A DNA stretch of 64,000 nucleotides from an uncultured Alphaproteobacteria bacterium (GCA_937892955.1 CALBKH010000096.1:7621-71620); one strand, 5' to 3'; counted from the first letter of the stretch, positions 14,094 to 24,710 are shown. The notes: generated from the letters alone by a model not told the origin. Program-made: numbers and translations.

Positions 14094-14449
14094 TCCAGGG
14101 CCCCCTTCTTCCACTCGTAGACGAAGCCGATGGTGAGGACGCCGAGGAAGATCATCATCGACCAGAAGCCGAACCAGCCGAGACCGCCGAAGGCCACCGC
14201 CCACGGGAACAGGAAGGCCACTTCGAGATCGAAGATGATGAAGAGGATCGACACCAGATAGAAGCGGACGTCGAACTTCATGCGCGCGTCGTCGAAGGCG
14301 TTGAATCCGCATTCGTAGGCCGACAGCTTCTCGGGATCCGGCTTCTTGTAGGCGACCAGGAAGGGCGCGATCATGAGAGCCAGGCCGATGACGCAGGCCA
14401 GCGCGAGAAAGACGACGATCGGCAGGTATTCGCTGAGCAGGGCTTGCAT
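14084..14449 (-). CDS. nuoA: NADH-quinone oxidoreductase subunit A
   Basis: 121-aa, 3-TM ORF ([22 protein letters not shown]...[39 protein letters not shown]), the ND3 signature. First gene of the operon. Confidence 0.9.
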
Positions 14450-15083
14450 GGCGATCCCGTTCCTCTCCCCCGATCCGGGAAGCGATCCGCGATCCGAGAT
14501 CGTGGATCGGACTGCTCTCGCCGGGTTCCTCGCGCCGATTCTGGGAACACGGCGCCGTCACGGCGAGGATACGACGAATTCGCGGCTGCGACCCGTCGTC
14601 ACGACGGCACGCTTAGCTCAGCCACCCCCGCGACGCAAGCGCCTTCACCCGCTCTTTTGGTCGAGTGTGGGGGGACGATCGGAAGACCCCGCATCCCACA
14701 CCCTACCGCGGCGCAACAAAGCGCACCGCCGCGGAATTTCGCGCTTTCCCCGCGGTTTCGGCGATTCGCCCATTTCTTCGCTCGGGCCCGCGCGTGCGGC
14801 CGCGACCCCGGGATCACAGGATGCGAGACCCTCGTCGACGGCCGCTCCGATCCGCCTCGCCGCGGCTCGCGAAAAGAGGGCGGCGAAAGGCTTTCCCGGG
14901 TTCAGCCGATTTGGCGCATTCTGGTATTACACAATAGGTCGACCTCGACCAAAGTTCCATCCACCTCACCCCGGTGCACCGGCGGTTCGCCGGCCGCGAT
15001 CGGCGAGGATCGGAGAAAGCGCGGCGAAACCGGCTTTTCCACCGGCTGCCGACGACGCCGGAATCTTCGCCGGCAAGAGGTGC

Positions 15084-15111
15084 TTGACACCGGAAGCCGG
15101 GCACCTTAAAC
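15084..15111 (+). promoter_or_regulatory. candidate sigma-70 promoter for tRNA-Asp
   Basis: TTGACA at 15084-15089, a 16-nt spacer, then TTAAAC at 15106-15111. It lies about 44 nt upstream of the mature tRNA 5' end. Motif match only. Confidence 0.4.
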
Positions 15112-15154
15112 GACCCTCCATCGCCGACGGGGCACGCCCCCGAAGCGGTCCAGC

Positions 15155-15231
15155 GGGGGTGTAGCTCAGTCGGTTAGAGTGCCGGCCTGTCACGCCGGAG
15201 GTCGCGGGTTCGAGCCCCGTCACTCCCGCCA
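15155..15231 (+). tRNA. tRNA-Asp (anticodon GTC)
   Basis: GGGGGTGTAGCTCAGTCGGTTAGAGTGCCGGCCTGTCACGCCGGAGGTCGCGGGTTCGAGCCCCGTCACTCCCGCCA. It folds as a cloverleaf by hand: a 7-bp acceptor stem with one G-U pair, anticodon loop CTGTCAC, T-loop GGTTCGAGCCC and an encoded CCA. Near-identical layout to E. coli tRNA-Asp. Confidence 0.95.
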
Positions 15232-15439
15232 TTTCTTCCTCGGAAGAATTCCGGACATCGAAGAATCCACGACATCGTCGAAACGAGTGGAACCGCGCCT
15301 CGCGCGGCTCTCGCCGTTCGACCGTTCCGCCCTCTCCTCCTCGATCCTCCTCCCCGTCTCGGCCCGACCTCCGCCGGATCGCCGACACCGCTCCGACATT
15401 GAGATTTCGCGCGCGCGTGCGCGCGAGGCCGGAAACCGC

Positions 15440-15793
15440 TCACACCACCGGCGAACCGTAGCCGAACGAGTAGGGAACCGGCCCGGAGAAGGCGAGAACG
15501 TCGCCTTCGTCGAGCGTCGCCTCGCGGTTGATCAGGCCGCCGCCGTAGACGCCGGGCGAGATGTCGCGACCGTTGCGCAACACCAGGAAGACGTCGGCCG
15601 GCGGCAGGCGCAATCGGTCGACGACGTCGCCGACGGTGGCGCCCGCCTCGAGTTCCATGCGCCGCACCGGCCCCTCCGGCCCGGCATGCCGAGTGAGGCT
15701 GTTGAACAGCCGCACCTCGATGGCGATCGTCGCCCCGCCGGCATTGTGTCCGAGCCCGGCCGGCGCCTGCTCGGGAACCTCGTCTCGCCGCAT
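15440..15793 (-). CDS. MoaD/ThiS-like beta-grasp protein lacking a C-terminal Gly-Gly
   Basis: 117-aa ORF. Its core (IAIEVRLFNSLTRHAG...LEAGATVGDVVDRLRLPP...VLRNGRDI...LDEGDVLAFSGPV) aligns by eye with the MoaD-like ORF at 24065..24367. It ends in ...PYSFGYGSPVV instead of GG. GGAGG lies 13 nt upstream of the ATG. Confidence 0.6.
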   Translation of the reverse strand: MRRDEVPEQAPAGLGHNAGGATIAIEVRLFNSLTRHAGPEGPVRRMELEAGATVGDVVDRLRLPPADVFLVLRNGRDISPGVYGGGLINREATLDEGDVLAFSGPVPYSFGYGSPVV

Positions 15794-16083
15794 CGCCTTT
15801 TTCGCCTCCTCGCGCCCGCGCGCGTCGACCCGCGAAGATAGGCGACGACGGCGCGAACCCCTTGATCGCGGTCAAGACGGTCGCCGAGCGAAGTCGGTCC
15901 GGCCGCTTCGCCGTGCATCGCATCGCCCGCTCGCGAGGTCGCGCCCGACCGTCCACAGGCCTCCCGCGCCGACCGATTCCCTCTGGCCGAGCGACGGCCG
16001 ACCCGCCATTATGGCGCCACGAACACGACGGATCGGCCCGGCACGCAACGGGATCGACGGAGGAAACGGGGATTCGATCCAGG

Positions 16084-17190
16084 ATGAGCCGCGACGCGAC
16101 GCCCGCCGCCCTCACGCCACTCTCCCGGCTCCGCGACGACATCATGAGATTCGCCGGTCCGGTGGCGCCGCGATCGGTGCCGTCGGCCGAGACGATCGGC
16201 GCGATCGCGGCCGAGGACGTCGTCGCCGCGACGGCGGTGCCGACGACGGCGGTGGCGCTGATCGCCGGCCATGCCGTCGCCTCGATCGAGACCGTCGGTG
16301 CCTCGCCCTATGCGCCGGCGAACCCCGCGCGGCTGGTTCCGGTCGCCGCCGGCGCCCCGATTCCCGACGGCTGCGACGCGGTGGTGCCCGCCGACGCCGT
16401 CACCCACGACTTCGGCCTCGCCTCGGTGCAGCAGGCGGTGGCGCCGGGCGAGAACCTGCGCCGCGCCGGCGAGGATTTCGCTGCCGGAACGCGCCTGGTG
16501 ACGGCGGGGACGCGCATCGCACCGCATCTCGCCCTCCTCGCCGACGCGATCGGCCACGCGACCCTGTCGATTCGCCGTCCGCGCGTCGCGGTCCGCCACG
16601 CCGACGCGCCGGAGGCATCGCGATCGGCGCGGCTCGTCGCGGCGATGGTCGAGGCGGATGCCGAAACCACGATCGGAACCGTCGATGCACCGATCGGCGC
16701 GGCCGACCTCGTCCTCTTGGTCGGAAACGCCGAGATCGGCCCCGAAGACGCGGCGCTCGCCCTCCTCGACGGTACGGGCCGGCGTCTCGGCCACGGCGCG
16801 GCGCTCGCCGGGCTCGAATCGCTCGCCTGGGGGACGATCGCCGACCGCCCCGCCCTGGTGCTGCCGCATCGCCCGGAGGCGATCTTCGCCGCGCGCCTCA
16901 CCCTGATCGAGCCGCTCCTCACCGCCCTCGCCGCGGCGCGCGAACCTCCGCCGACCGAGACCCGGCCGCTCACCCGCAAGATCGTGTCGCAGGTGGGGAT
17001 GAGCGAGATCGCGCTCCTCGCCCGTGACGGCTCCGCGTGGCGACCGCTCGCCACCGGCGGCCTGTCGTGGTCGGCGATCGCCGCCGCCGACGCCTTCGTC
17101 GAACTGCCGCCGCAGAGCGAAGGACAGGCCGAAGGCACTCTCCTCACGGCCCGCGCCCTCACCTTTCCCCCGCTTCGGAGTACCCCATGA
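16084..17190 (+). CDS. MoeA-like protein with degenerate active-site motifs (pseudo-MoeA)
   Basis: MoeA domain order is recognisable (PIPDGCDAVVPAD, APGENLRRAGEDFAAGTRL, PRVAV...). The conserved FDxSxMDGYA, STGDEL, SGG(V/T)S.G..DY and KPGKP motifs are all substituted (VALIAGHAV, RHADAPE, LVGNAEIG, LAGLES). Start chosen at ATG 16084. The stop overlaps the next ATG (ATGA at 17187-17190). Confidence 0.7.
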   Translation: MSRDATPAALTPLSRLRDDIMRFAGPVAPRSVPSAETIGAIAAEDVVAATAVPTTAVALIAGHAVASIETVGASPYAPANPARLVPVAAGAPIPDGCDAVVPADAVTHDFGLASVQQAVAPGENLRRAGEDFAAGTRLVTAGTRIAPHLALLADAIGHATLSIRRPRVAVRHADAPEASRSARLVAAMVEADAETTIGTVDAPIGAADLVLLVGNAEIGPEDAALALLDGTGRRLGHGAALAGLESLAWGTIADRPALVLPHRPEAIFAARLTLIEPLLTALAAAREPPPTETRPLTRKIVSQVGMSEIALLARDGSAWRPLATGGLSWSAIAAADAFVELPPQSEGQAEGTLLTARALTFPPLRSTP

Positions 17191-19103
17191 AACAGGACCA
17201 GTTTCTCACCGTTCTCGGCCGTGACGAGGCGCTCGCCCGGTTCGAGGCGGCGCTCGCGGCCGAACCGGTCGGGGTCGAGACGGTGCCTCTGGCCGCCGGC
17301 CTCGGCCGCGTGGTGGCCGAGAACGTCGTGCCGGCGATCGACGTGCCGCCGTTCGATCGCTCGACCATGGACGGCTTCGCGGTGCGCGCCGCCGACGTGG
17401 CCTCCGCCTCCGAAGTCGCTCCGGTGACGCTTCGCCTCACCGGCGAGACCATCGCCTGCGGCACCGCACCGAAGCACGCGGTCGCGGCCGGCATGGCGAC
17501 GGTGATCGCCACCGGCGGGCCGATCCCGCGCGGCGCCGACGCGGTGGTGCCGGTGGAGTGGACCGAACCGGGCGCCGACGGTGCCGTCGTCGTCCGCCGC
17601 GCCGTGGCGAGCGGCCAGAATCTCGCCTACGCCGGCTCGGACCTCGCCCGCGGCGAGGTGCTGCTGCGCCGCGGATCGACCGTCGGCTCGCGCGAGATCG
17701 GCATGATGGCCGCCTGCGGCATCGGTTCGCTCGCCGTCTTCCGCCGACCGAAGGTGGCGGTGATCTCGACCGGCGACGAACTGGTCCAGCCGGGCGAGGC
17801 GCTGCGTCCCGCCGCCATCTACGATTCGAACGGGCCGATCGTCGCCGCGGCGGTCGCCGAGAACGGCGGCGAGGCCGTCGCCTACGGGGCGATCCCCGAC
17901 GACGAGGAAAAGCTGCGCGCCGCGCTCCACGAAGCGCTCGCCACCTGCGACATGGTCATCCTTTCCGGCGGCACCTCCAAGGGCGCCGGTGACTACACCG
18001 CCCGCCTCGTCGGCGAACTGGGCTCGCCCGGCATCGTCGCCCACGGCGTGGCGCTGAAGCCGGGCAAGCCGTTGTGTCTGGCGGTGTGCGAGGGCAAGGC
18101 GGTGGTGGTGCTGCCGGGCTTCCCGACCTCGGCGATGTTCACCTTCCACGAATTCGTGGTGCCGTCGCTGCGCCGTCTCGCCGGGCTTCCCGCCCGCGCC
18201 GAGGCCAAGCTCGACGCCACCGTGCCGGTGCGCGTGCCGTCGGATCGCGGCCGCACCGAATTCGTCATGGTGTCGCTCGGCGAGGGCCCCGAAGGCGAAC
18301 GCATCGCCCATCCGGTATTCAAGGGTTCCGGCTCGATCTCCGCCTTCGCCCAGGCCGACGGCTTCGTCATGGTCGACGCCCTCGCCGATCAGATGCCGGC
18401 GGGCACGCTGAGCGAGGTCACCCTGTTCTCTCCCGACGTGCGCATCCCCGATCTGGTGATCGCCGGATCGCACTGCGTCGGGCTCGAGCCGATCATCGAT
18501 CGGCTGGCGGCCGAGGGCTGGGTGGTGCGCGTCCTCGCCCTCGGCTCGCTCGGCGGCATCCAGGCGGCCAAGCGCGGCGAATGCGACATCGCCCCGACCC
18601 ACCTCCTCCACGCCGAGACCGGCGCGTGGAACCGCCCCTATCTCGGCGACGACATCGATCTCGTCGAAGGCTGGCGGCGCGTCCAGGGCATCGTCCACCG
18701 GCCCGGCGATCCCCGCTTCGAGGGCAAGACGGTGACCCAAGCGATCGAAACGGCGGCGAGCGCACCCGACTGCCTGATGGTCAACCGCAACCAGGGCGCC
18801 GGCACCCGCATCCTGCTCGACGGTCTGCTGGCCGGTCGACGTCCCGAGGGCTACTTCAACCAACCGCGCTCGCACGGCGCCGTCGCCGCCGCGGTCGCCC
18901 AGGGGCGGGCCGACTGGGGCATGGCGATCCGGGCGGTGGCCGAACCCTACGGCCTCGCCTTCATCCCGTACGGCGACGAGCACTACGACTTCGCCATCCC
19001 GAAGAATCGCATCGAACGCCCGGCGGTGAAGGCTTTCCTGAAGGCGCTGGCCGAGGAGAGCGTACGGGCGGAGTTGCGGAGGATCGGCTTCGAGCCGGCG
19101 TGA
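17187..19103 (+). CDS. moeA: molybdopterin molybdenum/tungsten-transferase MoeA fused to a C-terminal PBP-like (oxyanion-binding type) domain
   Basis: Track ORF 17037..19103 trimmed to ATG 17187 (MKQDQFLTVLGRDEALARFEAAL...). Canonical MoeA motifs are present: FDRSTMDGFAV, ISTGDELV, IYDSNG, LSGGTSKGAGDYT, LKPGKPL. About 220 extra C-terminal residues (IPDLVIAGSHCVGLEPIIDRLAAEG...NRNQGAGTRILLD...YDFAIPK) resemble a periplasmic-binding-protein fold domain. Confidence 0.85.
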   Translation: MKQDQFLTVLGRDEALARFEAALAAEPVGVETVPLAAGLGRVVAENVVPAIDVPPFDRSTMDGFAVRAADVASASEVAPVTLRLTGETIACGTAPKHAVAAGMATVIATGGPIPRGADAVVPVEWTEPGADGAVVVRRAVASGQNLAYAGSDLARGEVLLRRGSTVGSREIGMMAACGIGSLAVFRRPKVAVISTGDELVQPGEALRPAAIYDSNGPIVAAAVAENGGEAVAYGAIPDDEEKLRAALHEALATCDMVILSGGTSKGAGDYTARLVGELGSPGIVAHGVALKPGKPLCLAVCEGKAVVVLPGFPTSAMFTFHEFVVPSLRRLAGLPARAEAKLDATVPVRVPSDRGRTEFVMVSLGEGPEGERIAHPVFKGSGSISAFAQADGFVMVDALADQMPAGTLSEVTLFSPDVRIPDLVIAGSHCVGLEPIIDRLAAEGWVVRVLALGSLGGIQAAKRGECDIAPTHLLHAETGAWNRPYLGDDIDLVEGWRRVQGIVHRPGDPRFEGKTVTQAIETAASAPDCLMVNRNQGAGTRILLDGLLAGRRPEGYFNQPRSHGAVAAAVAQGRADWGMAIRAVAEPYGLAFIPYGDEHYDFAIPKNRIERPAVKAFLKALAEESVRAELRRIGFEPA

Positions 19104-19253
19104 AGGGCAAGTCTCGCACGGCCGAGGGCGGAGATTCTGTGCGCATCCGAAGGGACGGCGTTTTCGGCCGGCACTCGTCCCGTCATCCCCGGCTGGAGCA
19201 CTCGGAGAGTGCGGAGGGAAAGGGGATCCATCGGAGAGGCAACGGATTCATCC

Positions 19254-19298
19254 GGCACGATCGGGGGCGGCACGATCGGGGGCGGCACGATCGATGGC
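19254..19298. repeat. short tandem repeat, 15-bp unit GGCACGATCGGGGGC x about 2.9
   Basis: Read directly: ggcacgatcgggggc ggcacgatcgggggc ggcacgatcgatggc, in the convergent spacer between the moeA fusion and the modE-like gene. Confidence 0.6.
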
Positions 19299-19375
19299 CC
19301 CCCTTCCCTCGCCCTTCGGGCTCGCCGGGGGTGACGGGCGGATGATGCCCATGACGTGCTCCGGAGACGTCCCCC

Positions 19376-19747
19376 TCAACAACCGTCGTCCAACCCGTCC
19401 TGCGCTTCCGGCGCCGCCATCAGCGCCTCGAGGGCGGCGACGTGCGGCGCGGCCGCCTCTTCGGTGGCGAGGAGCAGCGCCCGATAGCGCTCGACCACCT
19501 CGCGGCCGAGATCGGTGAGCGCCGCGCCCCCTCCCCCGGCGCCGCCGGTGTGGCCCTCGACCAGCGGCCGGCCGAAGGCCTTGTTGAGGTGGTCGATCAG
19601 CTCCCAGGCGCGCCGGTAGGTCATGCCGGTGGCGCGCCCTGCCGCCGAGATCGAGCCGGTCTCGGCGATCGCCTCGAGCAGCGACACCTTGCCGTGGCCG
19701 ATGCGCGTCTCCGGGTCGAGCTTGAGGAACAGACGGATGGCGATCAT
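19376..19747 (-). CDS. ModE N-terminal-domain (winged HTH) regulator without Mop/TOBE molybdate-binding domains
   Basis: Track ORF 19376..19798 trimmed to ATG 19747 (MIAIRLFLKLDPETRIGHGKVSLLEAIAETGSISAAGRATGMTYRRAWELIDHLNKAFGRPLVEGHTGGAGGGGAALTDLGREVVERY). It aligns with the E. coli ModE N-terminal DNA-binding domain, including the GG.GGGGA.LT motif. At about 123 aa there is no room for the di-Mop domain. Confidence 0.8.
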   Translation of the reverse strand: MIAIRLFLKLDPETRIGHGKVSLLEAIAETGSISAAGRATGMTYRRAWELIDHLNKAFGRPLVEGHTGGAGGGGAALTDLGREVVERYRALLLATEEAAAPHVAALEALMAAPEAQDGLDDGC

Positions 19748-20094
19748 GGCGGCGGCTCTCCCCGGGCGAATGCGATTTTCCCGCCCCCGACGGTCCACCC
19801 GTTCGGAAGCCGATTTCGGTCGATCTTATTCGAGTCCACGGCGAAACGAAGCGTTTCCCATCGCCGCCACGCTCTCGAGCGATCGAAAAAATCCCCCCGG
19901 CCGCGGATTGCAAAACCGCCTGCCACTGTTATGAATCGTTCCAACTACGAAGTAGTTCGGATGAAACGACGCGTTGTTCGCTTGTAAGCATAACGCTTTC
20001 GCTGCGATTTCGCATCGTTTTGCTCGAACGACCACAAAGATTTTCATATCGGGGGGAGACGCGGACGCCGCCACGGGGCGGAGTACGTCGGACT

Positions 20095-20119
20095 CCCTCT
20101 CCCGCAACCCAAGGGAGGG
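20095..20119 (+). promoter_or_regulatory. hairpin that can sequester the aorA Shine-Dalgarno
   Basis: CCCTCTC (20095-20101) can pair with GGGAGGG (20113-20119) as 7 bp including one G-U pair. GGGAGGG is the SD of aorA (ATG at 20128). The loop is 11 nt. Hand-folded only. Confidence 0.3.
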
Positions 20120-20127
20120 CGCTCGGC

Positions 20128-20604
20128 ATGATGAATTCGCTGCACATCGACCCCTCGAAATGCACCGGCTGCCTCCAGTGCGAGATGGCCTGTTCGTTCG
20201 AGAACCACGGTGTCTTCGCCACCTCGAAGTCGCGCATCAAGGTGTTCGACTTCCATTCGACCGGCCGCAAGGTGCCCTACACCTGCACCCAGTGCGACGA
20301 AGCCTGGTGCATGCACGCTTGTCCCGTGGGCGCCATCTCGGAAGACAAGAAGACCGGCGCCAAGGTGGTCAACGAGACGACCTGCGTCGGCTGCAAGGTG
20401 TGCACGATCGCCTGCCCCTTCGGGACGATCAACTACGTCGCCGACACCGGCAAGGTGCAGAAGTGCGACCTGTGCGCCGGTTCGCCGGCCTGCGCCGAAG
20501 CATGCCCGACCGGTGCGATCACCTTCGTCGACGCCAACTGGACCGGCCTCGACCGCATGCGCGCCTGGGCCGAGAAGCTCGACACCCAGACGGCGACGGC
20601 CTGA
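20128..20604 (+). CDS. aorA: 4x[4Fe-4S] ferredoxin-like electron-transfer subunit of AOR (AorA-type)
   Basis: Track ORF 20020..20604 trimmed to ATG 20128, preceded by AAGGGAGGG. Four cluster motifs are present: CTGCLQCEMAC, CTQCDEAWCMHACP, CVGCKVCTIACP, CDLCAGSPACAEACP. Confidence 0.85.
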   Translation: MMNSLHIDPSKCTGCLQCEMACSFENHGVFATSKSRIKVFDFHSTGRKVPYTCTQCDEAWCMHACPVGAISEDKKTGAKVVNETTCVGCKVCTIACPFGTINYVADTGKVQKCDLCAGSPACAEACPTGAITFVDANWTGLDRMRAWAEKLDTQTATA

Positions 20605-20621
20605 GACGAGGAGGATCGAAC

Positions 20622-22469
20622 ATGTCCTGGCAACGCAAGATCCTGCGCGTCGACCTGACCGCCGGCACCTGCACCCCCGAAGACCTCAACATGGACTGGG
20701 CGCACGAGTATCTCGGCTCCCGCGGACTCGGGACGAAGTATTTCGTCGAGGAGGTCGGCGCCAAGGTCGACCCGCTGTCGCCCGCCAACAAGCTGATCTT
20801 CGCCACCGGGCCGCTCACCGGCACGATGGCTTCGACCGGCGGCCGCTACACCGTCATCACCAAGGGCCCGCTCACCGGCGCCATCGCCTGCTCCAACTCG
20901 GGCGGCTACTTCGGCGCCGAGTTGAAGATGGCCGGCTGGGACATGGTCATCCTCGAGGGCAGGTCGCCGAAGCCGGTCTATCTCCACATCGAGAACGACA
21001 CGGCCGAACTCGTCGACGCCGCGGAGATCTGGGGCACGTCGGTGTGGCACACCGAGGAGCACCTGAAGAAGAAGCATCAGGACCCGCTGATGCGCGTCTC
21101 CTCGTGCGGCCGCGCCGCCGAGCAGGGCTGCCTCTACGCCGCGGTGGTCAACGACCTGCACCGCGCCGCCGGCCGCTCCGGCGTCGGCACCGTGATGGCC
21201 TCGAAGAACCTCAAGGCGATCGCGGTGCGCGGCACCAAGGGCGTCGCCACCATCCGTGACCCGAAGGCCTTCATGGAGGCCACCAAGGCGGGCAAGAAGG
21301 TGCTCGCCGACAACGCGGTCACCGGCCAGGGCCTGCCGGCCTACGGCACCCAGGTGCTGATGAACGTCATCAACGAGATCGGCGCGCTGCCGACCCGCAA
21401 CCATCGCGACATCCAGTTCGAAGGCGCGCGGGACATCTCGGCAGAAGCCATGGCCGAGAAGCGTCCGACCGACGGCAAGGCCAATCTGGTCACCAACCAG
21501 GCCTGCTTCGGCTGCACCATCGCCTGCGGCCGCATCTCCCAGCTCGACAAGACGCACTACACCGTCGTCACCAAGCCGCAGTACTGGGGCGCCTCCGGCG
21601 GCCTCGAATACGAAGCGGCCTGGGCGCTGGGCGCCGCCAACGGCGTCGACGACCTCGAGGCGCTGACCTACGCCAACTTCATCTGCAACGAGGACGGCTT
21701 CGATCCGATCTCCTTCGGCGCCACCGTCGGCGCGGTGATGGAGCTCTATCAGATGGGCGTCCTCACCAAGGAGCAGATCGGCATCGAGGCGCCGTTCGGC
21801 TCGGCCCGGGCGCTGACGTTCCTGGCGGAGAAGGTGGCGCTCGGCGAGGGCTTCGGCCGCGAAGTCGCCATGGGTTCGAAGCGGCTCTGCGAGAAGTACG
21901 GCCATCCGGACCTGTCGATGTCGGTCAAGGGCCAGGAATTCCCGGCCTACGACAGCCGCGGCATCCAGGGCATGGGCCTGACCTACGCCACCTCCAACCG
22001 CGGCGCCTGCCACCTGCGCAGCTACACCGTGGCCTCGGAAGTGCTGGGCATCCCGATCAAGACCGACCCGTTGGCGACCGAAGGCAAGGCGGGCCTCGTC
22101 AAGGCCTTCCAGGATGCCACCGCCGCCTTCGACTCGGCCGGCATCTGCATCTTCACCTCCTTCGCCTGGACGCTGGCGGACGTCGCACCGCAGCTGCAGG
22201 CCGCCTGTGAAGGCGACTGGAGCCTGGAGAACCTGGAGAAGGTCGGCGAACGCATCTGGAACATGGAGCGCATGTTCAACAACGCCGCCGGCTTCACTTC
22301 GAAGGACGACAGCCTGCCCAAGCGCCTCCTGACCGAACCGGCCAAGACCGGCCCGGCCAAGGGTCTGGTCAACGGCCTCGACAAGATGCTGCCGGAATAC
22401 TACCAGCTGCGCGGCTGGACGCAGGATGGCGTGCCGACCAACGAGACGCGCGTGCGCCTCGGGCTCTGA
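20622..22469 (+). CDS. aorB: tungsten-dependent aldehyde:ferredoxin-type oxidoreductase, catalytic subunit (AorB-type)
   Basis: Track ORF 19974..22469 trimmed to ATG 20622 (MSWQRKILRVDLTAGTCTPEDLN...), giving 615 aa. AOR-family features: N-terminal AFOR_N-like segment, CFGCTIAC 4Fe-4S ligands, GLEYEAAWALG, DSRGIQGMGLTYATSNRGACHLRSY, GICIFTSF. Confidence 0.9.
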   Translation: MSWQRKILRVDLTAGTCTPEDLNMDWAHEYLGSRGLGTKYFVEEVGAKVDPLSPANKLIFATGPLTGTMASTGGRYTVITKGPLTGAIACSNSGGYFGAELKMAGWDMVILEGRSPKPVYLHIENDTAELVDAAEIWGTSVWHTEEHLKKKHQDPLMRVSSCGRAAEQGCLYAAVVNDLHRAAGRSGVGTVMASKNLKAIAVRGTKGVATIRDPKAFMEATKAGKKVLADNAVTGQGLPAYGTQVLMNVINEIGALPTRNHRDIQFEGARDISAEAMAEKRPTDGKANLVTNQACFGCTIACGRISQLDKTHYTVVTKPQYWGASGGLEYEAAWALGAANGVDDLEALTYANFICNEDGFDPISFGATVGAVMELYQMGVLTKEQIGIEAPFGSARALTFLAEKVALGEGFGREVAMGSKRLCEKYGHPDLSMSVKGQEFPAYDSRGIQGMGLTYATSNRGACHLRSYTVASEVLGIPIKTDPLATEGKAGLVKAFQDATAAFDSAGICIFTSFAWTLADVAPQLQAACEGDWSLENLEKVGERIWNMERMFNNAAGFTSKDDSLPKRLLTEPAKTGPAKGLVNGLDKMLPEYYQLRGWTQDGVPTNETRVRLGL

Positions 22470-22552: not shown

Positions 22553-23821
22553 ATGAGACACGTCATCATCGGCAACGGTCCGACCGGTGTCGTCGCCGCC
22601 GAAACCATCCGCAAGAAGAACCCGACCGACGAGATCGTCATCGTCGGCGACGAACACGAGCGGCCCTATTCGCGCATGGCGATCCCCTACCTGCTGGAGG
22701 GCAAGATCGCCGAGAGCGGCACGCTGCTGCGCCACGATCCGCACCATTGGGAACGGACCGGCATCTCCCTCGTCGAAGCGCGCGCCACCTCGATCGACGC
22801 GGCGGCGGGTCGGGTGTCGCTGTCGAACGGCGACGCCCTCCCCTACGACCGGCTGCTGATCGCCACCGGCTCGCACCCCGTCCGCCCGCCGATCCCGGGT
22901 ATGGACCTTCCCGACGTCGTCTCCTGTTGGACGCTCGACGACGCCCGCAAGATCCAGGACCGCCTGCGCCCCGGCGCCAAGGTGCTGCAGATGGGCGCCG
23001 GCTTCATCGGCATGATCATCATGGAGGCGATCGCCACCACGGTGAACAAGACCGGCGGCAAGCTCACCGTCGTCGAGATGGGCGACCGCGTCGTGCCGCG
23101 GATGATGACGCCCGAGGCGAGCCGGCTCATCCAGGGCTGGAGCGAGAAGGCCGGCGTCGAGATCCTCTGTTCGACCCGCGTCGCCTCGGTCGCGGCGAAG
23201 GCGAGTGGCGGTCTCACCGTCACCTTCGGCGACGGCGCGTCGCGCGACTTCGACTTCGTCATCTGCGCCACCGGCGTGGTGCCGACCATCGACTACCTGA
23301 AGGGCTCCGGCGTCGAGATCGGCAAGCTCGGCGGCATCGTCGTCGACGCCCGCATGCAGACCACGGTCCCCGACATCTACGCCGCCGGCGACTGCACCGA
23401 GTCGGTCGATCTCTCCACCGGTGAGTTCATGGTCAACGCCATCCAGCCCAACGCCGCCGATCAGGCGCTGGTCGCCGGCGCCAACATGGCCGGCGGCGCT
23501 GCCCTCACCCGCGGCGGCCTCAGGATGAACGTGCTCGAGACCTTCGGTCTGATCTCCACCTCCTACGGCCAGTGGTGGGGCGCGGAAGGCGGCGAGCACG
23601 TCGAGGAGGTCGACGCCGACGAATTCCGCTACATCCGGCTGGAGTTCATGGGCGATCGAGTGATCGGCGCCACCGTGGTCGGCCGCACCCACCACATCGG
23701 CGCCCTGCGCGGCCTCATCCAGACCGGCGTCAAGTTGACGGCGGAGTGGAAGGCGCGCCTGATGACCGACCCGAACAAGTTCATGGACGCCTACCTCGCC
23801 TGCGGGCAGTCGGCGGCCTGA
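22553..23821 (+). CDS. aorC: FAD/NAD(P)-dependent pyridine nucleotide-disulfide oxidoreductase-family subunit (AorC-type)
   Basis: 422-aa ORF with two Rossmann dinucleotide motifs (VIIGNGPTGVVAAE and VLQMGAGFIGMIIME) plus the AAGDC motif. Lies directly downstream of aorB. Confidence 0.8.
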   Translation: MRHVIIGNGPTGVVAAETIRKKNPTDEIVIVGDEHERPYSRMAIPYLLEGKIAESGTLLRHDPHHWERTGISLVEARATSIDAAAGRVSLSNGDALPYDRLLIATGSHPVRPPIPGMDLPDVVSCWTLDDARKIQDRLRPGAKVLQMGAGFIGMIIMEAIATTVNKTGGKLTVVEMGDRVVPRMMTPEASRLIQGWSEKAGVEILCSTRVASVAAKASGGLTVTFGDGASRDFDFVICATGVVPTIDYLKGSGVEIGKLGGIVVDARMQTTVPDIYAAGDCTESVDLSTGEFMVNAIQPNAADQALVAGANMAGGAALTRGGLRMNVLETFGLISTSYGQWWGAEGGEHVEEVDADEFRYIRLEFMGDRVIGATVVGRTHHIGALRGLIQTGVKLTAEWKARLMTDPNKFMDAYLACGQSAA

Positions 23822-23849: not shown

Positions 23850-24064
23850 TCTTCGGCGGTGCAGCGATGCCGCCTCGCCCGACGGTGGGCGGCTTCGACG
23901 AGGGGGTTCGGCGTCGCGAAGGACCCGCCGAATCCCGAAGCCGAGAAACATGCGAGAAAATACCTAGATCACCCCTTGATCCGTCGCATCGTCGCGCCAG
24001 ATCACAAGACGACGGCGGGGAAACTCGCCGGACGGCTGGTCGAAGGGGGGCCGAGGAGGACCCG

Positions 24065-24367
24065 ATGATCCATTCTCTTCCGATGAGGGGGTTGGTGCCG
24101 GAGACCGGTCGGACCGTGACGATCACGTTCAAGCTCTTCGCCCTGCTCGAGCGCTTCCTGCCCGAGGGTGCGAGCCGCAACGAGATCCGACTGTCGGTAC
24201 CCGACGCCACCACGCCGGGTGCCATCATCGCCGCCCTCGACCTGCCGGTGGCGCTCTGCGCCCTCGTCATCCTCAACGGTGTCTTCGTCCCTCCGGAGGC
24301 CCGTGATACGCAGGCCCTCGTCGACGGCGATGTTCTGGCGATCTGGCCGCCGATCGCCGGTGGCTGA
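24065..24367 (+). CDS. MoaD-like sulfur-carrier protein with C-terminal Gly-Gly (AorD-like)
   Basis: Track ORF 23867..24367 trimmed to ATG 24065, with GAGGAGGA 4 nt upstream. The protein reads MIHSLPMRGLVPETGRTVTITFKLFALLERFLPEG...LVDGDVLAIWPPIAGG, with ThiS/MoaD beta-grasp length and a terminal GG. Confidence 0.75.
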   Translation: MIHSLPMRGLVPETGRTVTITFKLFALLERFLPEGASRNEIRLSVPDATTPGAIIAALDLPVALCALVILNGVFVPPEARDTQALVDGDVLAIWPPIAGG

Positions 24368-24710
24368 TCGCATCAATCCCCCGCAAGGCAACTGGCCCCT
24401 GGTTCCCTCCCCGGAACCGGGGGTCTTCGTCGTGACCTACGAGATGGCGTTGACGCCGGCCGAACTGCACCGGCTGGCGGTGCATCTCGACGGCGGGGCG
24501 GAGATGGAACGCGGCGAGCGCTTCGCCGCGGCGCGTCTCGCCGACGGGAGGGCATGGCGGATCACGCTGGGTCCCGAACGCGAGCGCCGCATCGCCCTGA
24601 TGCGCTTCCCCATCTGCGACGCCGAGATCCGCCTCGAAGGCTTCGAACGCCCGGCGGCCGATGCCTTCCTGACGCGGTTCCACAAGGTCTTCCAGAAGGG
24701 CGGCGGCTGA
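24360..24710 (+). CDS. small conserved-looking protein of unknown function ending in GGG
   Basis: Same frame as track ORF 24168..24710. A candidate GTG start at 24360 overlaps the MoaD-like stop (GGTGGCTGA). GC3 is high throughout. The protein ends ...FLTRFHKVFQKGGG. The start is uncertain; an alternative ATG gives MALTPAELHRL. Confidence 0.5.
   Translation: MADRINPPQGNWPLVPSPEPGVFVVTYEMALTPAELHRLAVHLDGGAEMERGERFAAARLADGRAWRITLGPERERRIALMRFPICDAEIRLEGFERPAADAFLTRFHKVFQKGGG

Follow-up and report, generated by a model that had tools for sequence, protein, structure and literature searches.

A 64,000-nucleotide stretch of DNA from an uncultured Alphaproteobacteria bacterium (GCA_937892955.1, CALBKH010000096.1:7621-71620), referred to below in its entirety as the window, encodes two adjacent proteins of the MoeA type on its plus strand. 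The upstream open reading frame (ORF), ORF1, extends from an ATG at 16084 to a TGA at 17190 and specifies a 368-residue apparent pseudo-insertase, which has the MoeA fold and is devoid of the catalytic motifs. ORF2 (17187-19103, 638 residues) combines a canonical MoeA (residues 1-415) with a C-terminal PBP_like domain, named for periplasmic-binding proteins (residues 444-621, window 18516-19049); proteins of this architecture are termed MoeA-PBP here and the MoeA-like protein encoded immediately upstream is termed the partner. A sequence-only reading of the locus had proposed that ORF1, a MoeA paralogue with degenerate catalytic motifs, is coupled to the canonical MoeA-PBP that follows it, and our analysis bears this out, with the addition that ORF1 is conserved and not decaying.

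The guanine-plus-cytosine (GC) content of ORF1 by codon position (0.77/0.59/0.88) is that of a coding sequence and follows the same pattern as in ORF2 (0.74/0.52/0.91) and the downstream aorB gene, in a host genome of 68% GC; no alternative frame overlapping ORF1 or ORF2 displays this real-gene pattern. Locally, the interval 16001-18000 reaches 74% GC, other parts of the window lying at 65-71%. Homologues of ORF1 in the protein database form about 100 clusters of 330-390 residues and 35-99% identity without internal stops; the named ones are all alphaproteobacterial and carry no annotation beyond 'molybdopterin-binding protein' or 'hypothetical'. The family holds invariant and near-invariant positions of its own, K299, S302 and G305 of domain IV being nearly invariant; K299 is the single lysine of ORF1, and alanine accounts for 21.7% of its residues. 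An AlphaFold2 model of ORF1 built on 84 family members reached a mean pLDDT (predicted local distance difference test) of 95.6 and a pTM (predicted template modelling score) of 0.89. Foldseek comparisons with this model recovered 1UZ5, E. coli MoeA, Cnx1E and gephyrin E over about 400 columns (E-values from 1e-24 to 5e-29, TM-scores 0.62-0.76), and ORF1 is accordingly modelled with all four domains (I-IV) of the MoeA fold. In view of its third-position GC of 0.88, its homologues lacking internal stops and the confidently predicted fold, ORF1 is a real conserved gene under purifying selection with an intact four-domain MoeA fold.

Profile searches recognize this relationship to a limited extent. 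The sole Pfam match of ORF1 is MoeA_N (81 bits), neither MoCF_biosynth nor MoeA_C passing threshold, and its NCBIfam scores (66 bits for NF007960, cutoff 440; 102 bits for NF011068, cutoff 534) fall so far under each MoeA cutoff that it lies outside the curated MoeA families. Nevertheless, its alignment with ORF2 spans the full length of ORF1 at 28% identity, and the Pyrococcus and E. coli MoeA proteins also align over the full length.

The active site was compared in BLASTP, phmmer and MAFFT alignments of ORF1 with ORF2, Pyrococcus MoeA and E. coli MoeA (moeA from MG1655), the positions being given in E. coli MoeA numbering as mapped through the family alignment. Each of the motif replacements listed in the sequence-only reading was reproduced in these alignments. 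The FDxSxMDGYA motif has become TTAVALIAGHAV (16243-16278, plus strand), with alanine in place of D59, and T100 is likewise replaced by alanine. The remnant of STGDEL reads VRHADAPE (16591-16614, plus strand; RHADAPE against STGDEL itself), so that TGDE and with it E188 are lost, and the IYDxN loop that comes next is deleted along with D228, a residue tied to active-site Mg2+ coordination (PMC9458074). Further degenerate domain III motifs occupy 16714-16881 of the plus strand: SGGxSxGxxDY is replaced by LVGNAEIGPEDA, the GGxSxGxxD portion reading GNAEIGPED and GGxS itself GNAE; KPGKP corresponds to AGLES (LAGLES in its longer extent), KPGK being AGLE with K279 changed to alanine; and LPGNP has become LPHRP, with PHRP in place of PGNP. 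Hence none of the D59, T100, E188, D228, GGxS, K279/KPGK and PGNP positions characteristic of the MoeA active site survives in ORF1. The broader claim that its catalytic Asp, Glu and Lys residues are gone holds for D59, E188, D228 and K279, but not for D142 and D259, both of which are retained. Domain III is 127 residues long, 28 fewer than the mean of 155 in MoeA-PBP proteins, in line with an earlier estimate of a central domain about 30 residues shorter. On these alignments ORF1 has lost the domain III residues that bind Mg/AMP-MPT (adenylylated molybdopterin) and the oxyanion. Structures of E. coli MoeA variants in the PDB cover the E188, D228 and K279 positions (2NQS/2NQU, 2NQV and 2NRO).

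ORF2 presents the full Pfam architecture of MoeA_N, MoCF_biosynth, MoeA_C and PBP_like (PF12727), and belongs to NCBIfam NF011068 (PRK14498), whose cutoff of 534 bits it exceeds with 750.9 bits over profile positions 1-635 of 647. A protein that NCBI names from Pinisolibacter sp. matches ORF2 at 100% identity, and the window therefore probably stems from this genus of Hyphomicrobiales. The top PDB match of ORF2 is Pyrococcus 1UZ5 (8.8e-87); for its C-terminal domain no solved homologue is present in the PDB at E<=0.001. The 23 positions checked are canonical except for the clade-typical G275 and F300, and the catalytic motifs are invariant in 84 of 84 MoeA-PBP homologues. The earlier description of ORF2 as having every motif intact and a C-terminal PBP-like domain thus stands, and, judged by its sequence, ORF2 is an intact insertase with a cytoplasmic PBP_like domain of the oxyanion-binding type. 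That its ATG overlaps the TGA of ORF1 can be read directly from the DNA as an ATGA at 17187-17190; 6-7 nucleotides ahead of this ATG stands a GGAG (putative translational coupling signal, 17177-17190, plus strand). The two proteins are therefore probably produced from one message by translational coupling. Scans of 15300-20200 for sigma-70 promoters and intrinsic terminators gave no matches, and a scan of 14400-20700 for molybdenum or tungsten cofactor (Moco/Tuco) riboswitches upstream of ORF1 returned only a tRNA.

A comparative scan, in which each GTDB species was represented by a single genome and a MoeA-PBP alignment served as query, retained 80 loci, which with four earlier loci and the window gave 84 MoeA-PBP genes. 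In 75 of the 81 loci in which this could be judged (three further loci could not), drawn from at least six phyla, a MoeA-like gene ends at the start of the MoeA-PBP gene; with the 4-nucleotide overlap in the window, this is the adjacency expected of a contiguous MoeA2/MoeA1-PBP pair. Four of the six loci without an adjacent partner are from Planctomycetes. Seventy-one partners are intact, three are split by frameshifts and one is cut by a contig end. The possibility that ORF1 might prove absent or frameshifted in close relatives is contradicted by these 71 intact frames and by the protein clusters described above. The split copies (L033, L045 and L049, in metagenome-assembled genomes (MAGs) labelled MFD) are distributed over two or three frames and still cover the whole profile; assembly indels are more likely to account for them than real inactivation, and we take the MFD assemblies to be long-read assemblies. 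When the start codon nearest to the partner stop was used in each of 70 pairs, 28 junctions could be 4-nucleotide overlaps and 63 were overlaps or gaps of at most 20 nucleotides. A 1027-residue protein (P0214; L089 6001-9084) considered as a natural fusion of partner and MoeA-PBP was rejected as frameshift read-through on one contig, its partner HGIALQPG motif being followed by low-complexity out-of-frame sequence.

The intact partners form a graded series of 17 canonical, 7 intermediate and 47 degenerate members. Canonical partners, from Planctomycetes, Deltaproteobacteria, Acidobacteria, Betaproteobacteria and Acidimicrobiia, are 402-437 residues long and keep all catalytic residues except that RPSS replaces KPGK, and in the intermediate ones TGDE, D228 and the serine of GGxS are gone. 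The degenerate partners are alphaproteobacterial (for example Bradyrhizobium, Methylobacterium, Methylocapsa, Aurantimonas and Mesorhizobium), about 370 residues long and without TGDE, D228 and K279; they mostly keep D59, GGxG and D259 (D59 in about 38 of the 47, E188 in two, K279 in none). The most eroded partners are those of the window clade (the window, L001 and L006). D59 is also lost in the nearest protein homologues (P0001-P0019, the L086 and L087 partners included), and the TGDE segment is unconserved even inside the window clade. For 44 of the 47 degenerate partners the best BLAST match is a canonical one; a canonical partner (L070) is itself closest to Pyrococcus 1XI8/1WU2 and MoeA-PBP to 1UZ5, as ranked by similarity. 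Given these best matches and the distinct Pyrococcus relatives, ORF1 is most simply explained as having descended from the second MoeA of an ancient pair of paralogues, and not as a recent broken copy of ORF2.

The mode of divergence differs between the domains. Mean pairwise identities in domains I, II, III and IV are 0.38, 0.46, 0.35 and 0.44 among degenerate partners, 0.49, 0.54, 0.59 and 0.56 among canonical partners, and 0.64, 0.66, 0.71 and 0.61 among the MoeA-PBP proteins of the degenerate-partner lineages. Domain III is thus the least conserved domain in degenerate partners and the most conserved one in both canonical partners and MoeA-PBP, which implies that selection has been lifted from the MogA-like catalytic domain, the other domains still being constrained. 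Overall the partner evolves about 2.5 times faster than MoeA-PBP. A third, canonical MoeA is encoded within 8 kb in 27 degenerate-partner loci versus none of the 17 canonical-partner loci.

The gene neighborhoods link the pair to tungsten: aorABCDE is found here, and tupBCA, mobA/fdhD and formate dehydrogenase genes in relatives. The nuo operon and aorABCDE flank the pair in the window, L001, L006 and L086. On the plus strand of the window follow aorA (20020-20604), coding for the poly-[4Fe-4S] subunit with Fer4 family matches, which probably begins further inside this ORF (the L001 orthologue has 158 residues); aorB (20619-22469), coding for the tungsten-cofactor subunit of bacterial aldehyde oxidoreductase (AOR) with AFOR_N and AFOR_C domains, which scores 1081 bits against chain A of 8C0Z, a tungsten-containing aldehyde:ferredoxin oxidoreductase; and aorC (22553-23821), coding for the FAD/NAD subunit (Pyr_redox_2, 2.9e-56). 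The interval 23867-24710, also on the plus strand, contains the ThiS/MoaD-like aorD, recognized in the C-terminal 60 residues of the ORF at 23867-24367 (Pfam ThiS, 2e-6), and a candidate aorE, whose ORF ends at 24710 and has no family match; both give BLAST matches to the L001 AorD and AorE seeds. The window accordingly contains AorB, poly-ferredoxin, flavoprotein and MoaD-like genes in the order that defines an AorABC operon (PMC6365974, also for the roles of aorD and aorE).

Downstream of ORF2, a short regulator on the minus strand (19376-19798) consists of the ModE N-terminal helix-turn-helix (HTH) without a Mop/TOBE sensor (Pfam HTH_1, 1.2e-9; TIGR00637 ModE_repress, 87.8 bits and E 3.9e-25, below the cutoff of 98.5), and a 123-residue HTH_1 gene occupies the equivalent position in L001, L086 and L088. 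On the other side of the pair lies a divergent ORF of 107-117 residues (117 in the window, 15440-15793, minus strand), with coding-type codon-position GC and a sub-threshold Pfam ThiS match (E=0.0058). It is present at the same position and with 75-82% identity in all five window-clade loci examined (the window, L001 9420-9764, L086 8379-8732, L087 1939-2289 and L088 8474-8797), and in view of this constancy may belong to the module. It is far better conserved than ORF1 (44-62% in the same loci), and its C-terminus is GYG(A/S)PVV, not GG. A tRNA-Asp (GTC) is encoded at 15155-15231 (plus strand), between nuoA and this small divergent ORF.

Elsewhere the context varies. L087 has no AOR nearby. 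L088 (1-8444), with a partner that shares 44% identity with ORF1, has a different AOR: its pair adjoins an AFOR-family gene, a ThiS-like gene and genes for an Mbh/Ech-like membrane complex of NiFe-hydrogenase type, matching Proton_antipo_M, Oxidored_q6, NADHdh and NiFeSe_Hases, a hint that this AOR may be coupled to energy-converting machinery. In Bradyrhizobium, Afipia, Chelativorans, Mesorhizobium and others, genes for an HTH_17-PBP_like (TunR-like) regulator and a tupBCA-like transporter precede the pair, and mobA, fdhD, a third canonical MoeA of 417-418 residues, tusA and NAD-type formate dehydrogenase genes come after it. The divergent regulator shares PF12727 with the MoeA fusion (L003, L004, L012, L013, L017, L025, L031 and L081); in these loci it lies at about -4.5 to -2 kb relative to MoeA-PBP. 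Regulator and transporter genes together stand directly before the degenerate partner in many Hyphomicrobiales and, among Acetobacteraceae, in one locus (L003). A TupA-like gene occurs within 8 kb of MoeA-PBP in 18 of the 84 loci; a seed search of window positions 6001-30000 found neither TupA nor TupB, and its single TupC match is a livG/F-type ABC ATPase. The Methylobacterium loci (L048, L055, L058 and L061) share the order partner, MoeA-PBP, MobB and a 417-residue MoeA.

The pairing is not without precedent: although the sequence-only reading knew of no characterised example, contiguous MoeA2/MoeA1-PBP pairs had already been reported (PMC11291035, published as PMC11733289). According to that work (Martinez et al., PMC11291035), an ancestral archaeal duplication gave rise to a PBP-fused MoeA1 and a MoeA2, which are mostly contiguous, and the same pair occurs in a few bacteria. 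MoeA-PBP is further described there as co-occurring with TupA, MoeA1 being proposed as tungsten-specific and MoeA2 as molybdenum-specific, and a model of an archaeal homologue places the PBP_like domain atop domain IV. With this background we propose, with a probability of roughly 0.55, that ORF1 and ORF2 represent, in Alphaproteobacteria, the archaeal-type pair of second MoeA and MoeA-PBP, and that ORF1 serves as a non-catalytic subunit of the MoeA-PBP insertase in tungsten cofactor maturation. Among possible mechanisms a putative ORF1:ORF2 heterodimer appears the most likely. The sequence-only reading had also suggested a heterodimer, one that might discriminate between tungsten and molybdenum or pass cofactor on to AorB. 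Since the MoeA active site is shared between two chains, combining domains III and IV of one with domain II of the other (PMC9458074), such a dimer would have one live and one dead site: the live site would be formed by domains III and IV of ORF2 with its PBP_like domain and closed by domain II of ORF1. With this asymmetry the enzyme would supply the adjoining AorABC by loading molybdopterin with tungstate, and the third, bacterial-type MoeA encoded nearby in most Alphaproteobacteria may have freed the partner's own active site from selection.

An asymmetric dimer of this kind fits the conserved adjacency and coupling, the relaxed domain III of the partner, the retention of D59 in most degenerate partners, and the double requirement in Desulfovibrio. 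D. vulgaris Hildenborough needs both the MoeA-PBP DVU0951 (moeA-2) and the moeA DVU2990, a candidate member of the partner clade, to make the tungsten cofactor of Aor; the two are non-redundant and have a cofitness of 0.85 (PMC10102598). A stronger form of the proposal makes the dead MoeA an obligate subunit, without catalysis of its own, of an asymmetric tungsten insertase that has a single site (pseudo-MoeA:MoeA-PBP). We put this form forward more tentatively, and would sooner bet against it than for it.

Several observations weigh against the proposed subunit. Six MoeA-PBP genes (L036, L046, L063, L068, L071 and L085) have no adjacent partner. D59 and T100 of MoeA-PBP are invariant in 84 of 84 proteins. 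Were the enzyme purely heterodimeric, these two residues would lie opposite the partner's dead site, and their constancy suggests that homodimers of MoeA-PBP are functional as well; and the ORF1 proteins of the window clade, being without D59 and T100, would bring little chemistry to the live site. Mirror-tree correlations were 0.92 between partner and MoeA-PBP and 0.94 between partner and third MoeA, and hence revealed no partner-specific coevolution. Genetic data come from M. extorquens AM1, where META1p3047-3050 encode MoeA5 (26.7% identical to E. coli MoeA), MoeA3, MobB and MoeA1, and MoeA1 and MobB are essential for the tungsten-dependent formate dehydrogenase (FDH) FDH1 (PMC13197769). 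As the order MoeA5-MoeA3-MobB-MoeA1 equals that of the Methylobacterium loci above, MoeA5 (META1p3047) would by synteny be the degenerate partner and MoeA3 (META1p3048) the MoeA-PBP. The same paper reports that deletion of moeA3 or moeA5 has little effect, leaving an FDH1 activity of 40-41 U/mg versus 50 in the wild type, and a tungsten content of 0.33-0.37 in the single deletions versus 0.48.

The main rival to a subunit of MoeA-PBP is that ORF1 acts by itself, probably as a homodimer, as a scaffold, carrier or chaperone that docks, for example, apo-AorB, MobA/MobB or the MoaD-like AorD/AorE, and is co-expressed with ORF2 by virtue of a shared tungsten role. The intact fold with conserved domains I, II and IV would suit a binding platform, for which Glp, an inactive MoeA of Actinobacteria reused in this way and discussed in PMC11291035, offers a precedent; the invariant domain II residues of MoeA-PBP, which suggest continued homodimerisation, and the mirror-tree result point the same way. 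Strict adjacency with frequent 4-nucleotide overlaps across phyla is, however, more typical of subunits of one complex, a catalytically complete MoeA fills the same position in other phyla, and no client neighborhood is conserved, with aor genes in some loci, fdh/tup genes in others and neither in L087. We regard a free-standing scaffold as possible but improbable, and as less probable than the obligate subunit. Considerably less credible is a regulatory 'poison' role, in which half-dead dimers would throttle or gate metal insertion, for instance against molybdate mis-insertion. It would be compatible with the evidence for a heterodimer and with the complete disappearance of domain III chemistry, to which the window clade adds the loss of D59 and T100, and translational coupling would fix the stoichiometry; but in its ancestral form the partner appears able to catalyse, and the second MoeA of D. 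vulgaris is required for the Aor cofactor and not inhibitory to it (PMC10102598).

Marginally more doubtful again is the idea that ORF1 might still be an enzyme, inserting metal by non-canonical residues or catalysing another step such as pterin binding or transfer. D142 and D259 persist in ORF1, K299, S302 and G305 remain nearly invariant in its family, and many less degenerate members keep GGxG, D259 and PG and could still bind the pterin phosphate. Yet the equivalents of E188, D228 and K279 are gone, TGDE is unconserved within the window clade, domain III is the fastest-evolving domain, and ORF1 scores far beneath every NCBIfam MoeA cutoff. Least probable of all, and already contradicted by the data, is a decaying pseudogene from a MoeA duplication. 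Heavy substitution, the shortened domain III, the high alanine content, the rapid evolution relative to MoeA-PBP and the split partners in three MAGs and in the P0214 contig might all suggest it. The frame is nevertheless intact in 71 loci, with about 100 protein clusters at 35-99% identity; coding periodicity is strong, the fold prediction very confident and family-specific residues invariant; and the three split copies, read across their two or three frames, leave no part of the profile uncovered, as is expected of indel errors. On conservation, periodicity and fold, decay is rejected.

The gene pair itself is already known, and it is the partner's loss of catalytic residues that appears unreported: neither this loss nor a heteromeric enzyme is described in the available texts of PMC11291035, PMC10102598 and PMC13197769, and further full-text searches turned up nothing on the subject. 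A partner that is catalytically dead, persists as a conserved gene in many Alphaproteobacteria and has eroded furthest in the Pinisolibacter-like window clade appears to be an undescribed variant of the pair, and the phenomenon is more general than the sequence-only reading could know. Where two MoeA paralogues stand side by side in tungsten users, the usual guess is that one serves molybdenum and the other tungsten, a split that the Desulfovibrio fitness data contradict, both MoeA proteins being needed for one tungstoenzyme. The partners of Bradyrhizobium, Methylobacterium, Methylocapsa, Pinisolibacter and others, which have kept fold, position and tight junction and lost the active site, amount to a natural 'catalytic-dead mutant' experiment, and predict that the conserved role of the partner is non-catalytic. 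As the dead-partner pair is conserved across many Alphaproteobacteria, this suggests that the second MoeA for tungsten cofactor synthesis can act without catalysis. If the dead partner is indeed an obligate subunit, the need for two MoeA proteins would have a structural cause, the two not sharing out molybdenum and tungsten between them, and the partner would be the first pseudoenzyme subunit described in molybdenum and tungsten cofactor biosynthesis. The question of why tungsten should need two MoeA proteins thereby becomes directly testable, including in the genetically tractable M. extorquens and Bradyrhizobium, and caution is advisable in treating MoeA5-type genes as candidate insertases when heterologous tungsten-dependent FDH or AOR biocatalysts are engineered.

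Among known systems, the archaeal-type MoeA2/MoeA1-PBP pair resembles the window in having adjacent moeA paralogues, one of them C-terminally fused to PF12727, and is associated with tungstate transport (TupA) and tungstoenzymes. Both of its paralogues are treated as insertases, whereas the window and the 47 alphaproteobacterial loci have a partner without an active site and with about 28 fewer domain III residues, and the bacterial carriers named in the available text of PMC11291035 include no alphaproteobacterium. D. vulgaris shares with the window a MoeA-PBP, a second MoeA and the tungsten cofactor of an aldehyde oxidoreductase; unlike in the window its two genes are not adjacent, and the second MoeA is an ordinary one of 33% identity for which the accessible text reports no active-site loss. 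MoeA5 and MoeA3 of M. extorquens are treated in PMC13197769 as candidate insertases, the PBP fusion and the catalytic degeneration going unmentioned in its available text. Glp, the MoeA2 of Corynebacterium glutamicum (PDB 8BVE/8BVF) and a structural neighbour by Foldseek, parallels ORF1 in keeping the MoeA fold and losing the enzymatic role. It is, however, a protein-binding platform that binds FtsZ at the divisome and has no link to MoeA-PBP, while ORF1 sits in a cofactor and tungstoenzyme neighborhood; membership of ORF1 in the Glp family (NF045515) was considered and rejected at 83.5 bits against a cutoff of 475. Finally, E. coli MoeA, plant Cnx1E and gephyrin E have the four-domain fold in common with both ORF1 and ORF2, and the catalytic residues in common with ORF2 only. 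These are symmetric homodimeric molybdenum insertases with two active sites, from which the pair described here differs in that ORF1 has no site and ORF2 carries an additional PBP_like domain.

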